NCBI GenBank assembly: GCA_001662655.1
Contig: KV460276.1
Direction: 5' to 3' (one strand)
Length of the DNA stretch: 64,000 bases
DNA from: Pseudogymnoascus verrucosus
Lineage: Eukaryota
Shown here: positions 3,556 through 53,325 of the stretch, one piece after another
Position numbering within the stretch: the stretch's first letter is position 1
Layout of the letters: every line of letters starts with the position of its first letter
Notes under the pieces: generated by a model
Databases searched by the model: none
The model's input: only the letters and a program-made list of their open reading frames with translations
What the model was told of the DNA's origin: nothing
Program-made: the position numbers and the translations under genes

Positions 3556-5288
3556 CTATAAAGAATTTTGAAGCTGTGATGTAATAGCTAAAAACTGCTG
3601 CGTAGTCAGCGTGCAAGAGAGGCCTGCTCCTTTATCGCCTTCTGAACCATGTCTGTGGATGAGAACCCCATTGCTCATTATGAGCCGGCGGTGCTGCTTT
3701 AGGTCCTTGAAATTTACGTCAATGGTAAAGGACTCCGCTTGAGCGCGGGGCCCATCAATTCGTATGGCAATAGATACCTATAACTGATTTAGCGAGAGGG
3801 CGGCTGTCATTCCCTCGTTACTTGTATCAAACGAGACCGGATAGAGCTTGCCACGAAGCTCGTCTGCACTGGTGAGGTAACAATTCCGCCAAGGCCCGTT
3901 CTCAGCACCGTAACCTAGTTTCTCAAATACTAATGCCAGCGCCTGTTTAGCTTCGTCGTGCTTTGAATCTGCGAAGACCACGTGGCTAAGCAAGGTCGCT
4001 GCAAAGCGGAGGTCGCCATTCTCGACATAAGTTTGGGCCATACAGACGACCGCGTCGGCGCCTCCCATACAGAACACATAGCGTCGGCCTTCCTCTGCCG
4101 GGGGGTGCTCCCAAAGATGAGCTGGATTGCCATCGTACCATCCCATATATCGTTGGTAGATTGCTTTCACATTGTGGCTGATGGATCCGTAATAACCCTG
4201 TGCGTGCCAGGCCCTCTGGAGCGTATGTGGGAGAACGAAAGACTCGGCTATCTCGATCCCTGTCTGGCCCTGGTTTATCATACGAACCGTTTGGTCGTGT
4301 AAGTATGCGTAGAGGTCTCACTGCTCTGAGAGATATTGGGTAATTGCTTCGCGACCCCAAGTAGGCCAGTGGTGCGAGGCGAAGGAGACGTCTGCATCAT
4401 GGGCAAAAAGAACAATAGCCTCATCTAAGTAGCTCGACCAGGCCTGGGCATCACGGACCACTGCCCCTCGTAGAGTTAAGATGTTATGGAGGTTATGAGT
4501 AGCATTTTCAGCCATACATAGAGCCTTGCGTTCGGGAATATAGAAGTTCATCTCGGAAGGCGCTTCCGTTCCTGGTGTGATCTGAAATATGAAACGCACG
4601 CCATCAACAACCTCTTCCTGACCAGTCTTAGTAATTTCTAGAGTTGGCGGAATCAGTGTAGTTGTGCCGGTGGATATGGTGCTGCCAAGCCCTGTGGAGA
4701 TCTGGCCCTCTGGTCCTTTCTTGAGCTCATTCCCATACATATACACTGCACGGCGAGCCATCGCGTTGCCGACAAAGATATTCTCCCCTACAGCATGTTC
4801 CACAAAGCCTTTAGGGGCTAGTATCGTGACTTTTTTGCTTGTTTCCTGTAGCACACCACGGGACCACCAAAATGGTCGCCATGCGGGTGCGTGTAGAGCA
4901 ATCCAGTGACGGGTCGGTTTCCACGGTGTTCGCGGTAGAGTTTGAGACCAGCTGCCGCACACTCCACAGAGATTAGAGGGTCAATGACAATTATACCTTG
5001 TTTTCCTTCGATAACCGTCATGTTGGACAGATCAAATCCACGGATTTGGTAGATACCGTCTGTGACTTGGTAGAGGCCCTGCTGACGACAAAGTTGGGCT
5101 TGGCGCCAGAGGCTCGGGTTGGCTGATGGCGGGCACGAACCTTTGAGAAAGTCGTATTCCTCATTGTTCCAGATAACGTGGTCCTCGTGATTTCTGACTA
5201 TGCAGGGTTCAAGAGCAGCGATAAAGCCTCGACTCGCATTATCGAAATCAGTAGTGTCAGTAAACGAAGAAGAGGTAACTTTAGACAT
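3556..5288 (-). pseudogene. Alkyl/aryl sulfatase (SdsA1/BDS1 family, metallo-beta-lactamase fold) pseudogene
   Basis: Motifs NPSLWRQAQL, YQIRGFDLSNMT, HPHGDHFGG, TPGTEAPSEMNFY, HNILTLRGAVVRD, HHWPTWG, GYYGSISHNVKAIYQRYMGWYDGNPAHL. Broken by a 1-nt frameshift near 4862 (HFGG/ARGVL), TGA at 4318-4320 in EQ*DLYAYLHDQT, and TAG at 3778-3780. The 3' end is approximate. Confidence 0.9.
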
Positions 5289-10089: not shown

Positions 10090-11312
10090 CTAGATTGAAA
10101 GAGTGGCACCTGCAACGCCAACTACGGCGCTGCGCACATTTGCAGATCCGAGCAAGCTGTATGTATACGGCATGCTAGATGGAGTAAGAGTGCCAACAGG
10201 TGCTGTATTAGATCCGATTCCGAGATCATTATCGAAGGCGTTCGCGTAACTATAATTGTCAGTGATGTTATATTTCCAGTTTATCATAGTGATGAGCCAC
10301 TCACCCTGTTTTATCACTGTATAATGCAGCAATTGGCTCCGTGCAGTTAACAAAGACGTTGCTCTGAACCAAGATTTGGGCTCCATCTCGGGTGTCGATT
10401 CCGGTATTCATACTGTCGAAGTACGAGTTGTAGACGTGGCCAGTGCCGTATCTCAAGCTAGGAGTTCGGCTGCCGATGTTGAACCAGTGGTTGTTGTGTT
10501 GAGTGACGTGGAGATGTCCGGTATCTTCTGCTGCATTATTGTCGCTGTGGCCGATGAGGGATGCTTTCCAGTGGTCATGAAGGTAGACGTTTGAAATGGT
10601 GACCCATTCTGAAGCGTGTGTAACATCAATCAACCCGTCATAGTAATCCTTGCCGTGGGAGAGGTCAGAATAGAACTCGCTGATACCGTAAGTAGACGAA
10701 TGATAAGATTGTTATGGATTACAAACCAATGGTCAACCCAGACATTGCTAGATGCCTGAATTCCAAGCCCATCACCAGAACTAGCTAGCACGTTCTCGCT
10801 GATGATGTTGCGGATGATAACGTTTTTTTGCTTCCATATATAGAGGCCGACTCCGCTAAGTTCTAGTAATTGTTATTGTAGCTCTTCCACAACAAGATCT
10901 AGATATGCATACTGGCACCGGGGAGGCCAATGATTGATTTGTTGGAACCAATTCTTACTTGGACATCACCGGTAATTGTACCTTTAACCACAATGATGAG
11001 AGGAGTTGCATCGTTGTTTTTAGAGTTGTCGGCAATAGCTGTGAACTGGGCGAGAGTAGACACTGTAGTGACCGTTCCACCTTTGCCCCCTGTTGTTCTA
11101 TTATGCACATACATTTAGTATATGTATAGCATTACAGTAGTGTCCACTTACCCTCCATTCTGAGTAGCAAATCCGGTGTCAGCAACGTCAGTAATAGTTG
11201 CTCTTTTTACAATGTTTGCGCGCTCGACGGTAGAGTCTTCAGTCGGAGTAGGAACAGCCACTACAAGTGGAGCTACAATGGCAAGGCCAAGTGAAACAAT
11301 TGAACACCTCAT
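10090..11312 (-). CDS. Secreted pectate lyase, family PL1, 5 exons
   Basis: Signal peptide MRCSIVSLGLAIVAPLVVA, KR propeptide site, GFATQNGG/TTGGKGG, NVIIRN, NVWVDH/CEF, YDGLIDVTH, SRTPSLRYG; four GT-AG introns restore the frame. Confidence 0.93.
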
Positions 11313-12657: not shown

Positions 12658-14211
12658 ATGAAGTTTCTCATCTTTGCCACTCTTCTTCCATTGGTGCTGG
12701 CTTGTACCAATCCAAACTCAGATGCTTGTGCCTCTGCAGTCAGTGTGTTAGGGCAGGCCTTCTGTGCTACATATACCACAAAAGTCAACACAGCCACGAC
12801 ATCGCTGCCAGCATGGGCAAGCGCCTGCTCGAATAAGCCCACCAAGATCTCCAGTGTGTGTACTTGCTTCGCGACGGCAACTGCACCGGCAACCGCAACT
12901 GTACGTATGATCACCTTGTAATGAGCTCTACTTTGCTAATGCTCAGCATAGCCAACGACATTAAAAACTAGTACGACGGCAACAAAGGTCACAACGACGA
13001 CATCAGCCCCTGGTGGTGGTGGTGGAACTGCTTGCACTGTGACCGCTTATGCTTCAATCTCCGCTGCCGTTGCATCATGCTCAAACATTGTTTTATCCGG
13101 AATTTCTGCTCCCGCCTCTAGCTCAATTGATTTATCAAAGTTGAAGACTGGTGCGGCAGTTACCTTCTCTGGCACAACTGTACGTATGATTAATCGTGAC
13201 ATATAAACTGGATTGCTAACTGTGGAAGACCTTTGGGAAAACGTCAAGCAATGACTTCAACCCCATCGTTATTTCTGGTACCGATATTACCATCACGGGA
13301 TCAGCTGGCCATGTTATTGATGGAAACGGCCTGGCGTACTGGGATGGTCAGGGTTCAAATGGAGGTGTCGCAAAGTACGTCTGAAATATTTTCCATATAA
13401 TAGGAATACTAATTCGTGTGTTAGGCCAGACCATTTTATTGTCGCAAAAAACTTGAAGAACGCAGTATTTTCTAACTTAAACATTAAAAACTGGCCAGTC
13501 CACTGCTTTGATATCACCGGTGGAGACACTATTACGCTAAGCAACATTCATCTTGATAACACGGCGGGAAATGCTGCAAATTCTGCAAGTGGCGGCCTTC
13601 CTGCCGCTCACAACTCGGATGGATTCGATATTTCGGGAACATCTAATCTCATCTTGGAGAATTCGTATGTTAATAACCAAGATGACTGTGTAGCTGTCAC
13701 CAGTGGAACCAACATCCTTGTGTCGGGAATGACCTGCATTGGTGGTCACGGACTGAGTATTGGGTCCATCGGAGGGAAGAGCAACAATGTAGTAGATGGA
13801 GTGACGTTCCAAGATTCGACCATTTCTAATAGTCAGAATGGATGTCGAATCAAGTCTAACTCTGGCACGACTGGAGCTGTAAGTTTAATTTCGCGCTACG
13901 GCAGAAACCCGTTAACATTTTCGCAGGTCAACAACGTCACATATAGCAACATTATACTGTCGGGGATTACCTCATATGGTATTGATGTGCAGCAGGATTA
14001 TTTGAACGGTGGGCCGACGGGTGACCCAACAAACGGTGTCACTATTTCCAACATAAAATTCATCAACGTGAAAGGCACCGTGAGTTCGAGTGCGTATAAT
14101 TATTATATCCTCTGTGGCTCTGGAAGTTGCTCTGGCTTTACTTTTACTAGTGACAGCATTACTGGTGGTAAGACGAGTTGCAACTATCCTTCATCTGGAT
14201 GCCCTAGTTAG
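12658..14211 (+). CDS. Secreted endopolygalacturonase, family GH28, with Cys-rich N-terminal module and Thr/Gly linker, 5 exons
   Basis: Signal peptide; YWDGQGSNGG; catalytic motifs HNSDGFD, NQDDC, GGHGLSIGS, RIK; canonical introns (first 12901-12951). Confidence 0.95.
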
Positions 14212-20460: not shown

Positions 20461-21567
20461 TTAAACCTTCAACCACGGCAACTCCTCCTTCGAATACCTA
20501 TACGCCCTAAACAGCGCATTCGACTCGCCAGGAAAGATCCCCCTCGTGATATCATCCTTGTACTCTGCAAAATGCGGCACAATATACTCCCAAACCAACA
20601 CCCCCTTCACCGTCACCTCGAAGATCCTGCCAAACGCGCTCTCGCAGATGAGCGTATTCCCATTCGCCAACCTCTGCGCGCTCCCCATAAACGGAGTGAA
20701 AAAGGTATTCCACTGCGACGGGTCCCTATACTGCCACACAATTTCTTTCGTCCTGCGGTCCACCTCAATAACCCTGCTATATGTGTTCGACTCGCCCGTG
20801 CGGTATGCGCCGTTGTCGAAGATCAGGATATTTCCGTTCTCGAGCTCCGTCGCACAATGCTGCTGTGCAATAACGTCCGACTTCAAACTCCAGATGATGT
20901 TTCCAGTCGCCCGCTCAATGATGAGCACAGCAGAAATCGATCGCATAGAACACAGAATATTTCCATCCTTCAACGGAAGAACACTGTTAATTAGAGGATA
21001 GTGCTCCCTCCCGTAATGTGACTGCAGAGGAAACTCCTCCCTTGGCAACCGCTCGCTGACTTTCCACTCAAAGGTCACCTTTCCTTTAGGGTCAATCTCC
21101 TTGATGATGTCCGCATACGTCACGCCGTCAATCTCCGAACCTGGAATCCCGCCAACAACCTTGGCCGAGTCTTCCTTCGAAAGCGCCTCCAAACTCGTAT
21201 ACAGGAAACCTCCATCCCCATAATGGAACTGGTCGTGATGGCCCAGAGGATCCTTGACCTGCCTGACAACATTCCCGGCTGGATCCAACTCGCTCATAAC
21301 ACCCCCGCCATATTTATGGATGAAGGGGAAGATGTCGGGCGTCTCCGGGTTGATAGTGTTGATGGCGAGATTTCCGTTGGGGAGAATCCGCGCGTGTCGT
21401 CCAGTTCGGCCAGGCAATTGCCAGCGATGAACTTCCTTTCCGTCGATATCAACGAGGTATGCAATATCCCCGGCTAGAGGCGCAAAAAGAGTGTATCCTC
21501 CAAAAGTCTGCTCCTTGTCAACGCCCCTTAGGCCGACCCCGCCTCTTTTGATGGTGTTTTGCTCCAT
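20461..21567 (-). CDS. Arylsulfate sulfotransferase (ASST)-like beta-propeller protein, intronless, no signal peptide
   Basis: First ATG at 21567 (368 aa). GYTLFAP, AYLVDIDGKEVHRW, ILPNGN, GHHD, LINSV..DGNILCSMRS, QQHCATELENGNILIFDNG, SRVIEVD..IVWQY, GSAQRLANGNTLICES..GRIFEVT..VWEY, FRAYRYS. Confidence 0.85.
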   Translation of the reverse strand: MEQNTIKRGGVGLRGVDKEQTFGGYTLFAPLAGDIAYLVDIDGKEVHRWQLPGRTGRHARILPNGNLAINTINPETPDIFPFIHKYGGGVMSELDPAGNVVRQVKDPLGHHDQFHYGDGGFLYTSLEALSKEDSAKVVGGIPGSEIDGVTYADIIKEIDPKGKVTFEWKVSERLPREEFPLQSHYGREHYPLINSVLPLKDGNILCSMRSISAVLIIERATGNIIWSLKSDVIAQQHCATELENGNILIFDNGAYRTGESNTYSRVIEVDRRTKEIVWQYRDPSQWNTFFTPFMGSAQRLANGNTLICESAFGRIFEVTVKGVLVWEYIVPHFAEYKDDITRGIFPGESNALFRAYRYSKEELPWLKV

Positions 21568-21803
21568 TTTGTCCGAATTGTCAGTCAATTGAAAACGGGA
21601 AACACCCCTTCTTATCTCTTCCAGCCTCTAAACATAACCCCGCTATCATTTTGGCGCCGTTACCGGCGATCAGGAACCCCCACGATGAATCTCTAACAAT
21701 TGACCTAGATTTCGGTGACCGGCGACGACCGGGTAGTCCCCACCACGTGCAATCGCGTGCCGCCAACTTCATTCCCCGCGTAAGCCAATAAGCTTCTCTC
21801 CGC

Positions 21804-21844: not shown

Positions 21845-22295
21845 CACGCCTTCGTGAGTATTTTTTAACTTTTGCCATATAAATCGTTCAAATTCGTCGT
21901 GTTTGAATGTTTTCTTTTACGGTGGTATACGGCTCTCTGCTCCTTTTTAAATGCGACGGATTGAATAATGCTGGCTGTCGACCCCATGCATTCAAACTCT
22001 TATGAAGAGTGCATACGTCAGCTCAGAATCTCCTCTCATTGGGCTAATAGATAAGGTATACCGAAGATGATCAAGCCACAAACGTGGTTGGGACGTTGAC
22101 TTATTGGTCGGATATGGCGTATCTTCCCATCACCCTGCTCTACTTATCTCCGTAATGGCCAGTGCTGATAGCGACGGGGTTGTAACGATGTCGGAATCCA
22201 GCGCGCCATGGGATATGAGATGAGATGCCTCTTAGATACAAATATAGGGCCCTGCCGAGAGAATGTCATTCATTTCAGAACCCCCATAGTCTAAA

Positions 22296-23953
22296 ATGGC
22301 CTCCCCTGCATTGCCCGTGGCAGAAATAACGACCCAACTAGCATCTTCTCACCTCGAAAAGAAAGAAGATGCCACTCCCCTCCAGCTGCTGGAAATCCCC
22401 GGCTATGACCAAGACCTAAGCTGGTCCATCCACGAGGAGCGTGTTGCGGTCCGCAAGGTCGACCTCTGTATCCTCACCTTCATCGTCCTGCTCTTCACAT
22501 TCATGCAATTCGATCGAACCAACATCTCCGCCGCTCTCACAGACACCCTTCGCACCGACATCAATGTAAACACGTCTCAGATCAACACTGCCCAGACTCT
22601 CTTCATCTTGGGCTTCATTCTCACCGAAATCCCATTCAACATCATTACGAAGAAGATAGGGGCCGAGACATGGCTACCCATCACCATGTTCCTCTGGGGT
22701 GTGTGCACATGGTGCCAGATCTTCATGAAGAGCGCTAGTGGCCTATTTGCCTTGAGGTTCTTCATAGGTGCTATGGAGGGCGGATATATTCCTGGTACAT
22801 ACCTACGTCCACTCTCACATTCGTCCCTAACTTTATAGGAATGGCACTTTACATCTCCCGCTACTACACCAACCCTGAACTTGGCCTCCGCTTCGCCCTG
22901 TTCTGGGCCAGCAACGCAGTCGCAGGTTCCCTGTCCGGGCCCCTTTCTCTCGGCCTTCTCTCCCTCAGCGGCACCCACGGACTGAAGGGCTGGCAATGGC
23001 TGTTCCTTATCGAGGGCGCCGTCACCTGCTTCCTGGCTGTCGTGGCATACCTCTACCTGCCTCATTCAGCTCCCAAACCAAAGTCGTTCTTCGGAAAGAG
23101 CTGGAACATCTTCACCGAGCGAGAAGCGGCCATCTTGACCACCCGAGTTCTGAGAGACGACGCAACTAAGGGGTACACCCAAGGCAAGTCGGTCCAGATT
23201 CAAGACTTGAAAGATACGTTCATGGATTGGAAAATCTATGGACACGTTGTGTCTGCGTTCCTGTCAATGTAAGCATTCCACCCCGACGACAAGTCCAAGT
23301 CTAACTCTCACAGGCTTATGATCTATCCCATCAACACCTACGCACCGTCGCTCATAAAATCCCTCGGATTCGGTGGCTACAACGCCAATGGCCTCAACTC
23401 AGTCGGCTCTGTCGTCTCTCTCATAATCTCCATCTCAATTGCATGGAATAGTGACCGTACCCAAGAGCGTGGTTTCCACATTGCCTTTGGATTCTGTGTC
23501 GGCATTGCGGGTCTGTTGTGGACTGCCCTGGCGCCAGTTTCCTCTTCGAAATGGGTTGTTTATGGTGAGTCTAGTCTTCCCAACTCGCAGTAATAAACTA
23601 ACCAGATAGGTGGAATCGTCCTCACCCAAGCTGGCATGGGTTCGACGCAAGCGCTCAACGCAGCGTGGCTTTCGAGTGTAGTAGACGACAGAAAACGACC
23701 TATTGCATTGGCAATGTACGTTATGGGCATCCAGCTCGCTGGCTTCCCTGGAAATCAGCTATTCCGACAGCAAGATGCTCCGAGATACAGCAGAGGCTTG
23801 ATCATTGCTGCAGCCTGTGCAGCCGCCGGAGCGGTGATCGTGTTGGTATGGAAGGGGATTTATGCATTTGTGGAGAGACGACAAAATAGGAGCCCTGTGA
23901 ATGTCACAGAAAGCCCTCGCAGTGAAGAGAGCGCGTGGGGCGAGAAGAAGTGA
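22296..23953 (+). CDS. MFS transporter, anion:cation symporter/DAL5 family (SOA1/AstA-like candidate), 4 exons
   Basis: VRKVDLCIL, QFDRTNISAAL, EIPFNII, RFFIGAMEGGYIPG, YYT..ELGLRFALFW, GLKGWQWLFLIEG, DAPRYSRG; first intron 22795-22838. Confidence 0.88.
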
Positions 23954-24226: not shown

Positions 24227-25464
24227 CTAACAGCTGCTAGAGATAGATCCCTTGCAGTAGGTTCCGTCAAATCCTGACCCAATCTTTGGGGGCTCAGCTC
24301 CACTGGCGTTGCCCGTATATCTATCGCAGCCCTTGCCACTGTTTTGGCAAGAGTTCGTGATTGTGCAAGTGTCGCCATAGTTGGTGTTGATGCCGCAGAT
24401 GACTCCGCCGTTGATGGCCATGATATTGTCGAAAATAAAATTGCGAGGGCCACCATTGCCGCTGCAGTTGCCGCAGCTTCGAGCAACCTTTCCATAGTCG
24501 TTGGCGTAGAAGTTCTTCACGGAGACCGTTCCGCGGCCGTTGAATTGGATGATTTTGTCAGAGGCCTTGAATGCACCTCCTCCGTTGATGTAGGATGTGC
24601 CGCTAGCCTGCTTGAATGTGCTATTCACAGTTATAAGGGGTGTTAGGCATAAAAGTCGGCATCACTTACATGGCATCCTCACAGACGTCAGACCACCAGA
24701 CGTTATTGATTGTGCTAAAAAATGTCAGCTTCCAAATATTAGAGGCAAGTCGGATCTTTGACATACCACTTTCCCTTGCAGTGGACACCCTCAGCTTGGT
24801 TTGGACCAATTATAACGTTGGAGAGCGTGGCACCATCCTCAAGGATGAACATGGCATCCGCCTCACCAGTCTCCGTCTGTCCAGCACAAACCGCGGCTGT
24901 ATGTTGTTAGAGCCGTGAATACACGCCAAGGGGCGAGGACCACACTTACGGCTTCGGTCGTACATCTTCATGCCACCATCGAAGCTACCGGTGACGGCAA
25001 TAGCCTTGTTAGTGGCAACTATCACAGGTCAGCTATGCCATAAACGAATGCAGAATGCTACACACCAGCGCCCGAGGACTTGGGCAAGGTCGTGGTAAGG
25101 CCAGTCGGTGTGGCGCCGCCGCTGCCGCCACCAGCTGCCGTAGTCGTTGGCACGAGTGTGGTTGCTGGTGCACCTCCTGCTCCAGTCCTAAACTTTGTCA
25201 GCGACTCCCCGCAAAACGATACGTTCGCCCTCACCAGTAGCATGAGCACTCCTTGCTGATCTGGCTAGGCTTGCTGTCGCAGTTGGTGGCCCATGCAGGC
25301 AGGCCAGTGGTGGCAGTGACGACTTTCGTTGTGAACGTGCCGCAGTATGGCGAAGCAACAGCCTGGTTCGACTTGATATAGCTGGCGCATGAGTTGGTGT
25401 CTGGGTTGGAGCATCCCAGAACAACGGGGATCAGGCCCAGGATGGCGTAGCGGAAGTTCGTCAT
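24227..25464 (-). CDS. Secreted pectate lyase, family PL3, with Cys-rich N-terminal module and Thr/Gly linker, 6 exons
   Basis: Signal peptide [94 protein letters not shown]; five GT-AG introns restore the frame. Confidence 0.93.
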
Positions 25465-51100: not shown

Positions 51101-51906
51101 TCGTCTCAATGATATTCTGCTCTATACTATGACTTCCCTCCAGTGCTCTCGTTAATGGGTGTCATTAACCACGGACAACGAGCCGCTGTACCGCATTCTC
51201 CATCTTATTCTGGCAACAGTATACCAAAGAGTGGATACTCCACCTGTGGAAGACTACTGTTTATACTTCCATGCAGATACTAAAGATCTTGGTTCTCCAA
51301 TACCGGTTAGCATAGCCCTGACGCGCACCAAAGCGGCGCCAATATGGTAACTCTCCTTGACCAACGCGGGGTCGTCAGCGAATCCGAGCTATTAATCCGA
51401 AGCGCCCTGTTCTCAATCTATATGTTTCGTACATCTTGACCTGTTTTTGGATGAAGCCTCTGACGTCGCGTCTGCATCCTTGCCATGCACCTCTTTCTTC
51501 CATACTTCGGCAGAAGCTTTTGTGGGTTTCTAGTCTGCGAAACACAACCTTCCATCCGCTTTGATAGGCCACTGTTTAGCTAAGAGCAGGGGTGACGGCC
51601 GTATACAACAATTAACTTCGCGGAGATTGAGGGGCGAGAATGGTTGAGATGTCTCATGATGAACTTTAGATTGCCAACCAAGCTGGGGATATGTCCATCA
51701 TCTTTCAGGCATTATGCATCAGGTAAAATAGTGACGATCTATCAACCGACCCTGCGGCGTTCACGGCCCTGATGTCCACGTCCGAGCCTTTGCCCAAGGT
51801 CAACTCGCTACGAGCTGATGCTCAGAGAGATATAAAGAGAAGAAGATTTCCCACAATATTCTAATCATCACCTCACTCAACAACACATCCACAACCATCT
51901 TTCAAA

Positions 51907-53325
51907 ATGATCAGCAAGCTTGCCCTCGCCACCTTCACTCTTCTGGCCGCCGTCAGCGGCCAGCAAGTTGGTACTCTCGAAGCTGAGACTCACCCTTCCA
52001 TGTCTATGCAGACTTGCACCAGCGGAGGAGCTTGCACCAAGAAGGACACCAAGATCGTTCTTGATTCCAACTGGAGATGGCTGCACTCTACTGACGGCTA
52101 CACCAACTGCTACACCGGCAACGAGTGGGACGCAACTCTGTGCCCAGACCCAGAGACTTGCGCCACCAACTGCGCTCTCGACGGTGCTGACTACGAGGGT
52201 GTTTACGGTATCAAGGCTGGCGGCGATTCGCTGACCCTCACATTCGTCACTGGTGCCAACGTTGGATCGCGTGTCTACCTTTTGGCAGATGACAGCACCT
52301 ACCAGGGCTTCAACCTGAAGAACAACGAGTTCACCTTCGATGTTGACATGTCCAACCTCCCCTGCGGACTCAACGGTGCCCTCTACTTCTCCCAGATGGA
52401 CCTTGACGGTGGATTGGCCAACCACGCTGGCAACAAGGCCGGTGCCGCGTACGGAACCGGATACTGTGATGCTCAGTGCCCCCACGACATGAAGTTCATC
52501 AATGGCGAGGTAAGAGAAGCGGTCTACAGACCCTTTAATTTTCCGACTAACACATCATAGGCCAACACCATTGACTGGACCCCATCTGACAGCGACATCA
52601 ACGCTGGCAGCGGAAAGTTCGGAACCTGCTGCACAGAGATGGACATCTGGGAGGCTAACCAGGCCGCCTCCGCCTACACCCCCCACGCATGCAAGGGCCA
52701 AGGCCTCACCCGCTGCGAGGGAACCGACTGTGGTGATGGAGATGACCGCTACTCCGGCGTCTGCGACAAGGACGGATGTGACTTCAACAGCTACCGCATG
52801 GGCGACCCATCCTTCCTCGGTGTCGGCAGGACCGTCGACACCTCCAAGGTCATCACCGTGATCACCCAGTTCGTGACCGCCGACGGCACCGAGTCCGGCG
52901 CTCTCACCTCCATCAAGCGCATCTACGTCCAGGGCGGCAAGACCATCGCCAACTCCGAGAGCAAGATCGATGGCGTTGACGCCACCAACGAGATCACCGA
53001 TGCCTTCTGCGACCAGCAGAAGACTGCCTTCTCCGACAACAACTACTTCAAGACCCTCGGCGGCATGTCTGGCTTCAGCACCGCCCTCGACTCCCCCATG
53101 GTCCTCTCCATGTCCATCTGGGACGACCACGCAGCCTCCATGAACTGGCTCGACTCCACCTACCCCGTCGGCGGCACCGCCCCTGGCAACCTCCGTGGTG
53201 ACTGCGCCGCTACTGATGGCGACCCAGCTACCGTAGAGGCCGCCCACCCAGGCGCCACCGTCACCTTCTCCAACATCAAGTTCGGTCCCATTGGCTCGAC
53301 CTTCGATGCTGGCGCAACCGCATAA
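51907..53325 (+). CDS. cbh1: Secreted GH7 cellobiohydrolase I-like enzyme without CBM1, 2 exons
   Basis: [42 protein letters not shown], catalytic [24 protein letters not shown]; intron 52510-52560. Confidence 0.93.

Follow-up and report, generated by a model that had tools for sequence, protein, structure and literature searches.

A six-cysteine module at the N-termini of fungal pectinases belongs to an undescribed domain family

Why should two pectin-degrading enzymes with unrelated catalytic domains begin with much the same small, cysteine-rich segment? The question is raised by a stretch of 64,000 nucleotides from contig KV460276.1 of Pseudogymnoascus verrucosus (GenBank assembly GCA_001662655.1), here called the window, in which a preliminary description, made from the letters alone, had noticed a six-cysteine module at the start of a GH28 polygalacturonase and, by eye, about 28 identities in ~58 columns with the start of a PL3 lyase. 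We found that the two copies, 12.4 kb apart, do share a common module: in a single BLASTP comparison they had 27/57 identities and 41/57 positives (E 6e-18), and they aligned from end to end, matching at all six Cys and at the conserved residues F20, T23, T25, T30, L35, P36 and S50. With this degree of identity, this E value and all six Cys aligned, the likeness is far beyond chance. No third copy was found in the window by a six-frame motif scan.

In the GH28 gene (positions 12658-14211, plus strand), the peptide originally quoted, which begins at the first Cys and ends with the CTC motif, is encoded by positions 12703-12867, directly after the signal peptide. The gene model has five exons (12658-12900, 12952-13179, 13229-13374, 13425-13878 and 13927-14211) and encodes 451 residues, the same length as the NCBI protein P0001 (hypothetical protein, Pseudogymnoascus sp. 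VKM F-103); exon 1 is 100% identical in the two, and the sole difference lies close to the C-terminus, where the window has K and P0001 has E. Contigs from four public runs could be placed on this gene, and the spliced GT..AG joints among them (12900>12952, 13179>13229, 13374>13425 and 13878>13927, from two runs in two studies) corresponded exactly to the four introns of the model. Joint 12900>12952 is spanned by a contig that runs from the module exon into the linker exon, and another contig covers the module itself (positions 12696-12889). Being intron-less, the contigs bearing these joints are most simply explained as transcript-derived, in which case the module is expressed together with the enzyme. 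Separately, a contig of run X4 showed, at window positions 13175-13232 around the second GH28 intron, a non-canonical AA..CC joint with seven other letters between its two sides and several mismatches, and probably represents a diverged relative rather than alternative splicing. The PL3 gene model (25464-24227, minus strand) has six exons encoding 329 residues, with 94.5% identity over 328 residues to P0004 from another Pseudogymnoascus. Both models show the layout first proposed, with signal peptide, module, linker and catalytic domain in that order, Pfam placing GH28 and PL3 on the respective catalytic exons (Table 1).

Searches for a known relative of the module were negative throughout. 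Neither window copy was matched by any Pfam-A model in hmmscan at E<=10; 25 aligned members searched singly gave isolated noise (best E 0.078), with no family matched by more than one member; and no Pfam model lay over the module in any of 147 proteins matched by the family profile described below. Specifically, CBM1 (PF00734) matched neither the window modules nor the 25 members at E<=10, and CFEM (PF05730), CBM18/hevein (PF00187) and LysM (PF01476) gave no match to the modules, in keeping with the initial opinion that the cysteine spacing fits none of these four. The LysM search was able to detect its family, since the same tool found LysM elsewhere in protein P0165. In sequence searches of the PDB, the single sequence had 0 matches, and the profile retrieved one nanobody at E 0.8 and nothing below that value. 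Foldseek likewise returned 0 matches in the PDB at E<=10 for the predicted models of both copies, and VIA-align against 48,161 chains gave best Z values of 2.9 and 3.0, with none at Z>=5, the top matches being generic three-helix motifs of the TetR, Myb and FF-like kinds. For so small a helical model, such fold searches would prove neither a new fold nor a link to a known family. The best match in the ESM Atlas (0.79) was to an unnamed Ascomycota cluster, below the lead level.

The literature was similarly silent. Full-text searches turned up nothing that describes the module, an N-terminal domain in the polygalacturonases BcPG3, MfPG3 or pgaD, or a pectin-specific carbohydrate-binding module (CBM) of fungi, the original Bcpg3 cloning paper, which lay outside the search and may mention the extension, being excepted. 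The literature consulted included PMC6223089, PMC8952511, bioRxiv 10.1101/2020.12.10.418392, PMC12620375, PMC4488289, PMC4153048 and PMC8960721. We conclude that it is an undescribed and so far unannotated fungal domain family, new relative to Pfam-A, the PDB and the literature, CAZy and InterPro lying outside the comparison.

The module is 56-61 residues long across the family (56-59 in the two window copies) and is predicted to be a compact three-helix bundle, in which the six conserved Cys presumably form three disulfides. AlphaFold2 modelled three helices in the GH28 copy from a 25-sequence alignment, with a predicted local-distance difference test score (pLDDT) of 73.9; for the PL3 copy, a 66-sequence alignment gave a pLDDT of 83.8 (all five models 78-84), with helices at residues 8-15, 17-27, 40-45 and 49-58. 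In both models a long helix comes first and is followed, after a loop of 12 residues, by a short helix and then a C-terminal one. The invariant positions in the 66-sequence alignment are five of the six Cys and one Ser, the first Cys shifting its position between two forms of the module, types A and B. Both window copies fit the family pattern C-x(4 or 7-9)-C ... F-C-x-T-[YF]-T ... T-x-T-T-x-L-P-x-[WFY] ... C ... S-x-x-C-x-C, and the best-kept residues other than Cys are F20, T23, Y/F24 and T25 beside Cys3, the Thr-rich loop T30-A-T-T-x-L-P, and S50. Should a binding surface exist, its conservation would make the Thr-rich loop the first candidate. An aromatic binding face, as suggested in the preliminary description, is not what the alignment indicates: the Tyr/Phe that follows Cys2-Ala-Ser (the ASY position) is missing from the window GH28 copy; W38 is kept in every PL-type module but is replaced by F in 74% of those of GH28 type, and in type B the position holds Y, F or an aliphatic residue; and F20 and Y/F24, which flank a Cys within helix 1, look like core residues.

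How widespread is the module, and with what is it fused? When a profile built from the 25 modules was run against 1.84 billion representative proteins, 202 clusters matched at E<=1e-3, 61 of them at E<=1e-10, and the matches examined were the best 150 of the 202; wherever the sources of the matches listed were named, they were Ascomycota. In the 147 new proteins from these best 150 clusters, Pfam found PL3 in 6, PL1 in 2, GH28 in 4, DUF7908 in 2 and DUF7029 in 1; the rest comprised one protein with four LysM and a weak GH18, two sub-threshold oddities and 129 proteins with nothing. Word-based searches with the first exons of the window genes located GH28 carriers in Pseudogymnoascus and Oidiodendron, PL3 carriers in many Sordariomycetes, Orbiliomycetes and Leotiomycetes, and PL1 carriers in Zalerion, Dactylellina, Stachybotrys and Nemania. 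In one of these searches all three matches were GH28 enzymes (3/3), and in another the 45 matches consisted of 27 PL3, 5 PL1 and 13 proteins without a Pfam domain.

Type A, the form of both window copies, is defined by Cx7-9C at the first two Cys. Among the proteins gathered in these searches it is always single and N-terminal, being duplicated in 0/129 proteins and starting at residue 15-22 in 97/124 of those that begin with Met, and the 30 residues that follow it are composed of 28% T, 17% A, 12% S and 9% G. Comparison with reference catalytic domains made the downstream domain readable in 93 of 133 type-A proteins, and every one of the 93 was a pectinase (38 GH28, 14 PL1 and 41 PL3), with which Pfam agreed on the subsets scored. 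The other 40 are taken as truncated open reading frames because at most 98 residues follow the module, several visibly passing from the linker into the start of GH28 or PL1 before a mis-called end. The early proposal of a mobile module therefore holds, and in an extended form: it occurs on the unrelated pectinase families GH28 and PL3 and, in other fungi, also on PL1, these three being the only type-A partners read.

The preliminary description did not anticipate that this pectinase module is one branch of a larger family, which includes tandem arrays in non-catalytic Ser/Thr-rich proteins. Type B, with Cx4C and a CxxDNCLR-like motif, is found in secreted, Ser/Thr-rich proteins that have no catalytic domain, with 1-9 copies per protein and Ser/Thr/Pro/Gly/Ala-rich spacers between the copies; 37/102 of the proteins that are not type A have 2-9 copies. 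Type B was also found at the N-terminus of one GH28 cluster (Hyaloscypha) and, as one C-terminal copy, on a chitinase with GH18 and four LysM. In a FastTree of 208 module instances, read by leaf order only and without branch support, type B, GH28-type A and PL-type A were separate, with the PL1 modules scattered among those of PL3, a weak indication that the module may have been shuffled repeatedly. A recent intragenomic or local duplication as the origin of the two window copies was rejected, because the tree places them in different subtypes. Simple exon shuffling was down-weighted, the intron after the module differing in position and phase between the GH28 and PL3 genes.

Several of the type-B proteins have features of their own. 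For example, P0049 (1118 residues) is a Ser/Thr-rich protein with nine tandem type-B modules and a C-terminal DUF7908, P0108 (459 residues) has two modules and DUF7908, and P0069 has two modules and DUF7029; all three are unnamed or labelled hypothetical, and DUF7908 had no mention in the literature in a full-text search. In addition, the unrelated-looking proteins P0050 (~330-410) and P0065 (~30-115) contain a second Cys-rich stretch, CPNP...C...C.C, beside their type-B modules, and this stretch had no Pfam match.

The module is also present on enzymes that have been characterised. With the first 90 residues of "endopolygalacturonase 3" of Sclerotinia borealis as query, a search retrieved 17/17 GH28 proteins, from Sclerotiniaceae and other Helotiales, and a cluster look-up showed that these include BcPG3 of Botrytis cinerea B05.10 and polygalacturonase 3 (MfPG3) of Monilinia fructicola, in which the hidden Markov model of the module covers residues 17-75 and 17-77, respectively. 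Like the window GH28, both have a type-A module, then a long Ala/Ser/Thr/Val-rich linker and then GH28; unlike it, they belong to a CDNPD subtype with F in place of W38, and their linkers are ~100 residues long. MfPG3 has a mass of 50.1 kDa compared with 35-37 kDa for its paralogues, and no domain is described in the passages of PMC4488289 that note this difference; the words "CBM" and "cysteine" are absent from the main text of a review of the GH28 family (PMC8952511). Outside the Helotiales, the Aspergillus alliaceus GH28 (P0162/P0243), named "Pectinase D" in UniRef, has a divergent type-A module in a Eurotiomycete, the last CxC being SYL in P0162, which suggests that the Aspergillus PGD lineage may carry the module.

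The module is thus real, discrete, conserved, modular and without known relatives, and its type A is pectinase-specific in the pool. What it does is a matter of weighing. We consider the chances about even that it is a non-catalytic, CBM-like targeting module of homogalacturonan-degrading enzymes, by which they would dock on the plant wall or its pectin. This reading is favoured because the module is first in the mature protein, has an autonomous predicted fold, is followed by a flexible linker, is swapped among unrelated catalytic families acting on homogalacturonan, and occurs in tandem arrays in type B, the usual route to avidity where the ligand is a polymer. A CBM in the CAZy sense combines carbohydrate binding with a contiguous, discretely folded stretch of a carbohydrate-active enzyme (CAZyme); the second of these features is present in the module, which in GH28, PL1 and PL3 enzymes is flanked by signal peptide and linker and whose independent fold is predicted with confidence (pLDDT 83.8). 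In such a mechanism, the type-A module, first in the mature protein, would be tethered to a homogalacturonan-depolymerising GH28, PL1 or PL3 domain by a Thr/Ala/Ser/Gly linker that is flexible and probably O-glycosylated. The module would dock the enzyme on a plant-wall polymer, most likely the pectin network, raising the local enzyme concentration on the insoluble substrate, and the linker would give the catalytic domain access to chains close by; in the type-B arrays of Ser/Thr-rich secreted proteins, the same fold would serve for multivalent binding.

CBM1 is a close parallel in design: it too is a small, disulfide-bonded, terminal module of secreted fungal CAZymes, with a Ser/Thr-rich linker, shuffled between catalytic families. 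However, CBM1 is a small beta wedge of ~36 residues with four Cys, whereas the present module has 56-61 residues and six Cys, is predicted to be helical, has no match to PF00734 and, in type A, is partnered only with pectinases. LysM and CBM18 resemble type B in being small tandem modules of secreted non-catalytic proteins that also occur on enzymes, one type-B copy indeed standing beside four LysM, but they differ from the module in fold and share no sequence match with it. Fusions of CBM1 to PL1 are reported in PMC6223089.

Several points weigh against docking on pectin. The predicted helical fold would be unlike known CBMs, whose folds are almost all beta-rich. The candidate surface aromatics, W38 and the residue at the ASY position, vary between subtypes, and the mean net charge is near-neutral (-0.11 in GH28-type, +0.67 in PL1-type and +0.90 in PL3-type modules), so that there is no evident electrostatic grip on polyanionic pectate. 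The partner count is not an unbiased census, because the type-A pool came partly from searches seeded with pectinase N-termini, and it draws on the best 150 of 202 profile clusters. Finally, a module on a pectinase need not bind pectin, since the cellulose binder CBM1 occurs on PL1 enzymes too (PMC6223089). A further step is more tentative, namely that the module is the founding member of a new family of carbohydrate-binding domains, with a three-disulfide three-helix fold unused by known CBMs. Type A, directed to homogalacturonan or the pectin network, would then be the first module of fungal pectinases dedicated to pectin targeting, overlooked until now on textbook enzymes such as BcPG3, and type B would comprise multivalent wall binders. 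We would put this reading somewhat short of probable.

The alternative that survives best is that the module serves in retention or adhesion, binding the wall or matrix of the fungus itself (glucan, chitin, galactomannan or a matrix glycoprotein) and keeping pectinases at the hyphal surface, with the type-B proteins being wall or matrix glycoproteins. The architecture of the type-B proteins, which are secreted and Ser/Thr-rich, have no catalytic domain and contain 1-9 copies, is typical of fungal wall and adhesin-like proteins and consistent with this, as are the chitin-directed partners of the type-B copy on the GH18 and four-LysM chitinase, and the near-neutral charge gives no pointer to pectate. 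However, a general hyphal anchor would be expected on cellulases, xylanases and proteases as well, whereas type A is found only on GH28, PL1 and PL3 (93/93), and the multi-copy proteins inspected mostly have no obvious C-terminal tail of the glycosylphosphatidylinositol-anchor kind. On balance we regard retention at the hypha as unlikely.

We thought it improbable that the module is a domain binding a small ligand or ion (haem, sterol, lipid or cation) and supplying or sensing a cofactor near the enzyme. The comparison that suggests itself is with CFEM, which is fungal-specific, extracellular, Cys-rich and helical, is often N-terminal with a Ser/Thr-rich tail and may be present in several copies, and the predicted form of the module, a disulfide-stapled helical bundle rather than a beta-sandwich, joined to a Ser/Thr-rich region, does recall such proteins. 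But CFEM has eight Cys with another spacing in a larger helical basket that binds haem, whereas the module has six Cys, five of them invariant and the first shifted in position, and shows no Pfam similarity to CFEM; moreover, we know of no CFEM domain fused to a pectinase. In addition, a cavity would be hard to fit into a three-helix bundle of 56 residues, conservation outside the six structural Cys includes neither an acidic cluster nor a His/Cys metal motif, and GH28, which needs no metal, carries the module, as do the Ca-dependent lyases.

We gave as little credence to an intramolecular helper, namely a domain for folding, secretion or stability, or a removable pro-domain that holds the enzyme inactive until it is cleaved off. 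Such a role would suit the position of type A at the extreme N-terminus of the mature chain and the common architecture of GH28, PL1 and PL3, which are all right-handed beta-helix enzymes. However, KR or RR occurs within 60 residues after the module in only 12/129 type-A proteins, which makes regular Kex2-type removal unlikely, and the propeptide was down-weighted for this scarcity of dibasic sites. A long flexible linker poorly suits an inhibitory or capping domain, tandem arrays of the same fold exist without any enzyme, and BcPG3 has reportedly been produced in active form.

A protective role against plant inhibitors or immune receptors, as a shield or a decoy (the shield against inhibitors having been offered in the preliminary description), is very improbable, because the linker of 25-105 residues is flexible, at up to ~100 residues preventing any fixed shielding of the catalytic face, and because the module is equally present on pectate and pectin lyases, which to our knowledge polygalacturonase-inhibiting proteins do not inhibit; shielding from these inhibitors was down-weighted on both counts. 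The fact that several carriers are plant pathogens (Botrytis, Monilinia, Sclerotinia and Colletotrichum), and that BcPG3 is recognised by a plant receptor (PMC8960721), was counted in its favour, but saprotrophs and nematode-trapping or soil fungi (Pseudogymnoascus, Orbilia, Chaetomium and Oidiodendron) carry the module just as commonly.

The two carriers have a third homogalacturonan-degrading gene as neighbour, the three lying inside 15.4 kb (Table 1), with the module in two of them; in the N-terminal exon of the third, that for PL1, the signal peptide is followed at once by the catalytic part, with no module. Other genes of the window include an alkyl-sulfatase dimerisation domain (3778-4317, minus strand, E 8.6e-61) and an arylsulfotransferase-like open reading frame (20461-21627, minus strand, E 5.3e-21), both flanking the pectinase genes, a major facilitator superfamily transporter just before PL3 (22290-23272, plus strand) and a GH7 cellobiohydrolase-like exon (51865-52560, plus strand, PF00840, E 6.5e-87).

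Table 1. Features of the two module-bearing pectinase genes and of the neighbouring PL1 gene, in window coordinates
Feature	Positions	Strand	Remarks
GH28 signal peptide	12658..12702	+	residues 1-15, VLA end before Cys16; hydrophobic N-terminus read from sequence
GH28 six-Cys module	12703..12870	+	residues 16-71; type A, GH28 subtype
GH28 linker, Thr/Ala/Pro/Gly-rich	12871..13029	+	residues 72-107; contains intron 1 (12901-12951)
GH28 endopolygalacturonase catalytic domain and stop codon	13030..14211	+	PF00295, E 7.3e-49
GH28 introns in the catalytic part	13180-13228, 13375-13424, 13879-13926	+	all three joints present in run contigs
PL3 signal peptide	25414..25464	-	residues 1-17
PL3 six-Cys module	25237..25413	-	residues 18-76; type A, PL subtype
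PL3 linker, Gly/Thr/Ala/Pro-rich	25066..25236	-	end of exon 1 and exon 2; intron 25234-25188
PL3 pectate lyase catalytic domain and stop codon	24227..25018	-	exons 3-6 with introns; PF03211, E 2.5e-40, last exon
PL1 pectate or pectin lyase gene, neighbour of GH28	10090..11312	-	PF00544, E 2.8e-27; without module

Fungal pectinases are usually treated as single-domain enzymes, and we have found an accessory module on three families of them, including a much-studied, virulence-associated enzyme of Botrytis. The domain merits a family entry even if its ligand turns out to be a different one. If targeting to the plant wall is its true role, the kinetics, processivity and localisation of pectinases would have to be reinterpreted, the module could provide a new pectin probe for cell walls and a portable tag for industrial pectinases, and a function would be at hand for ~200 clusters of anonymous secreted fungal proteins.

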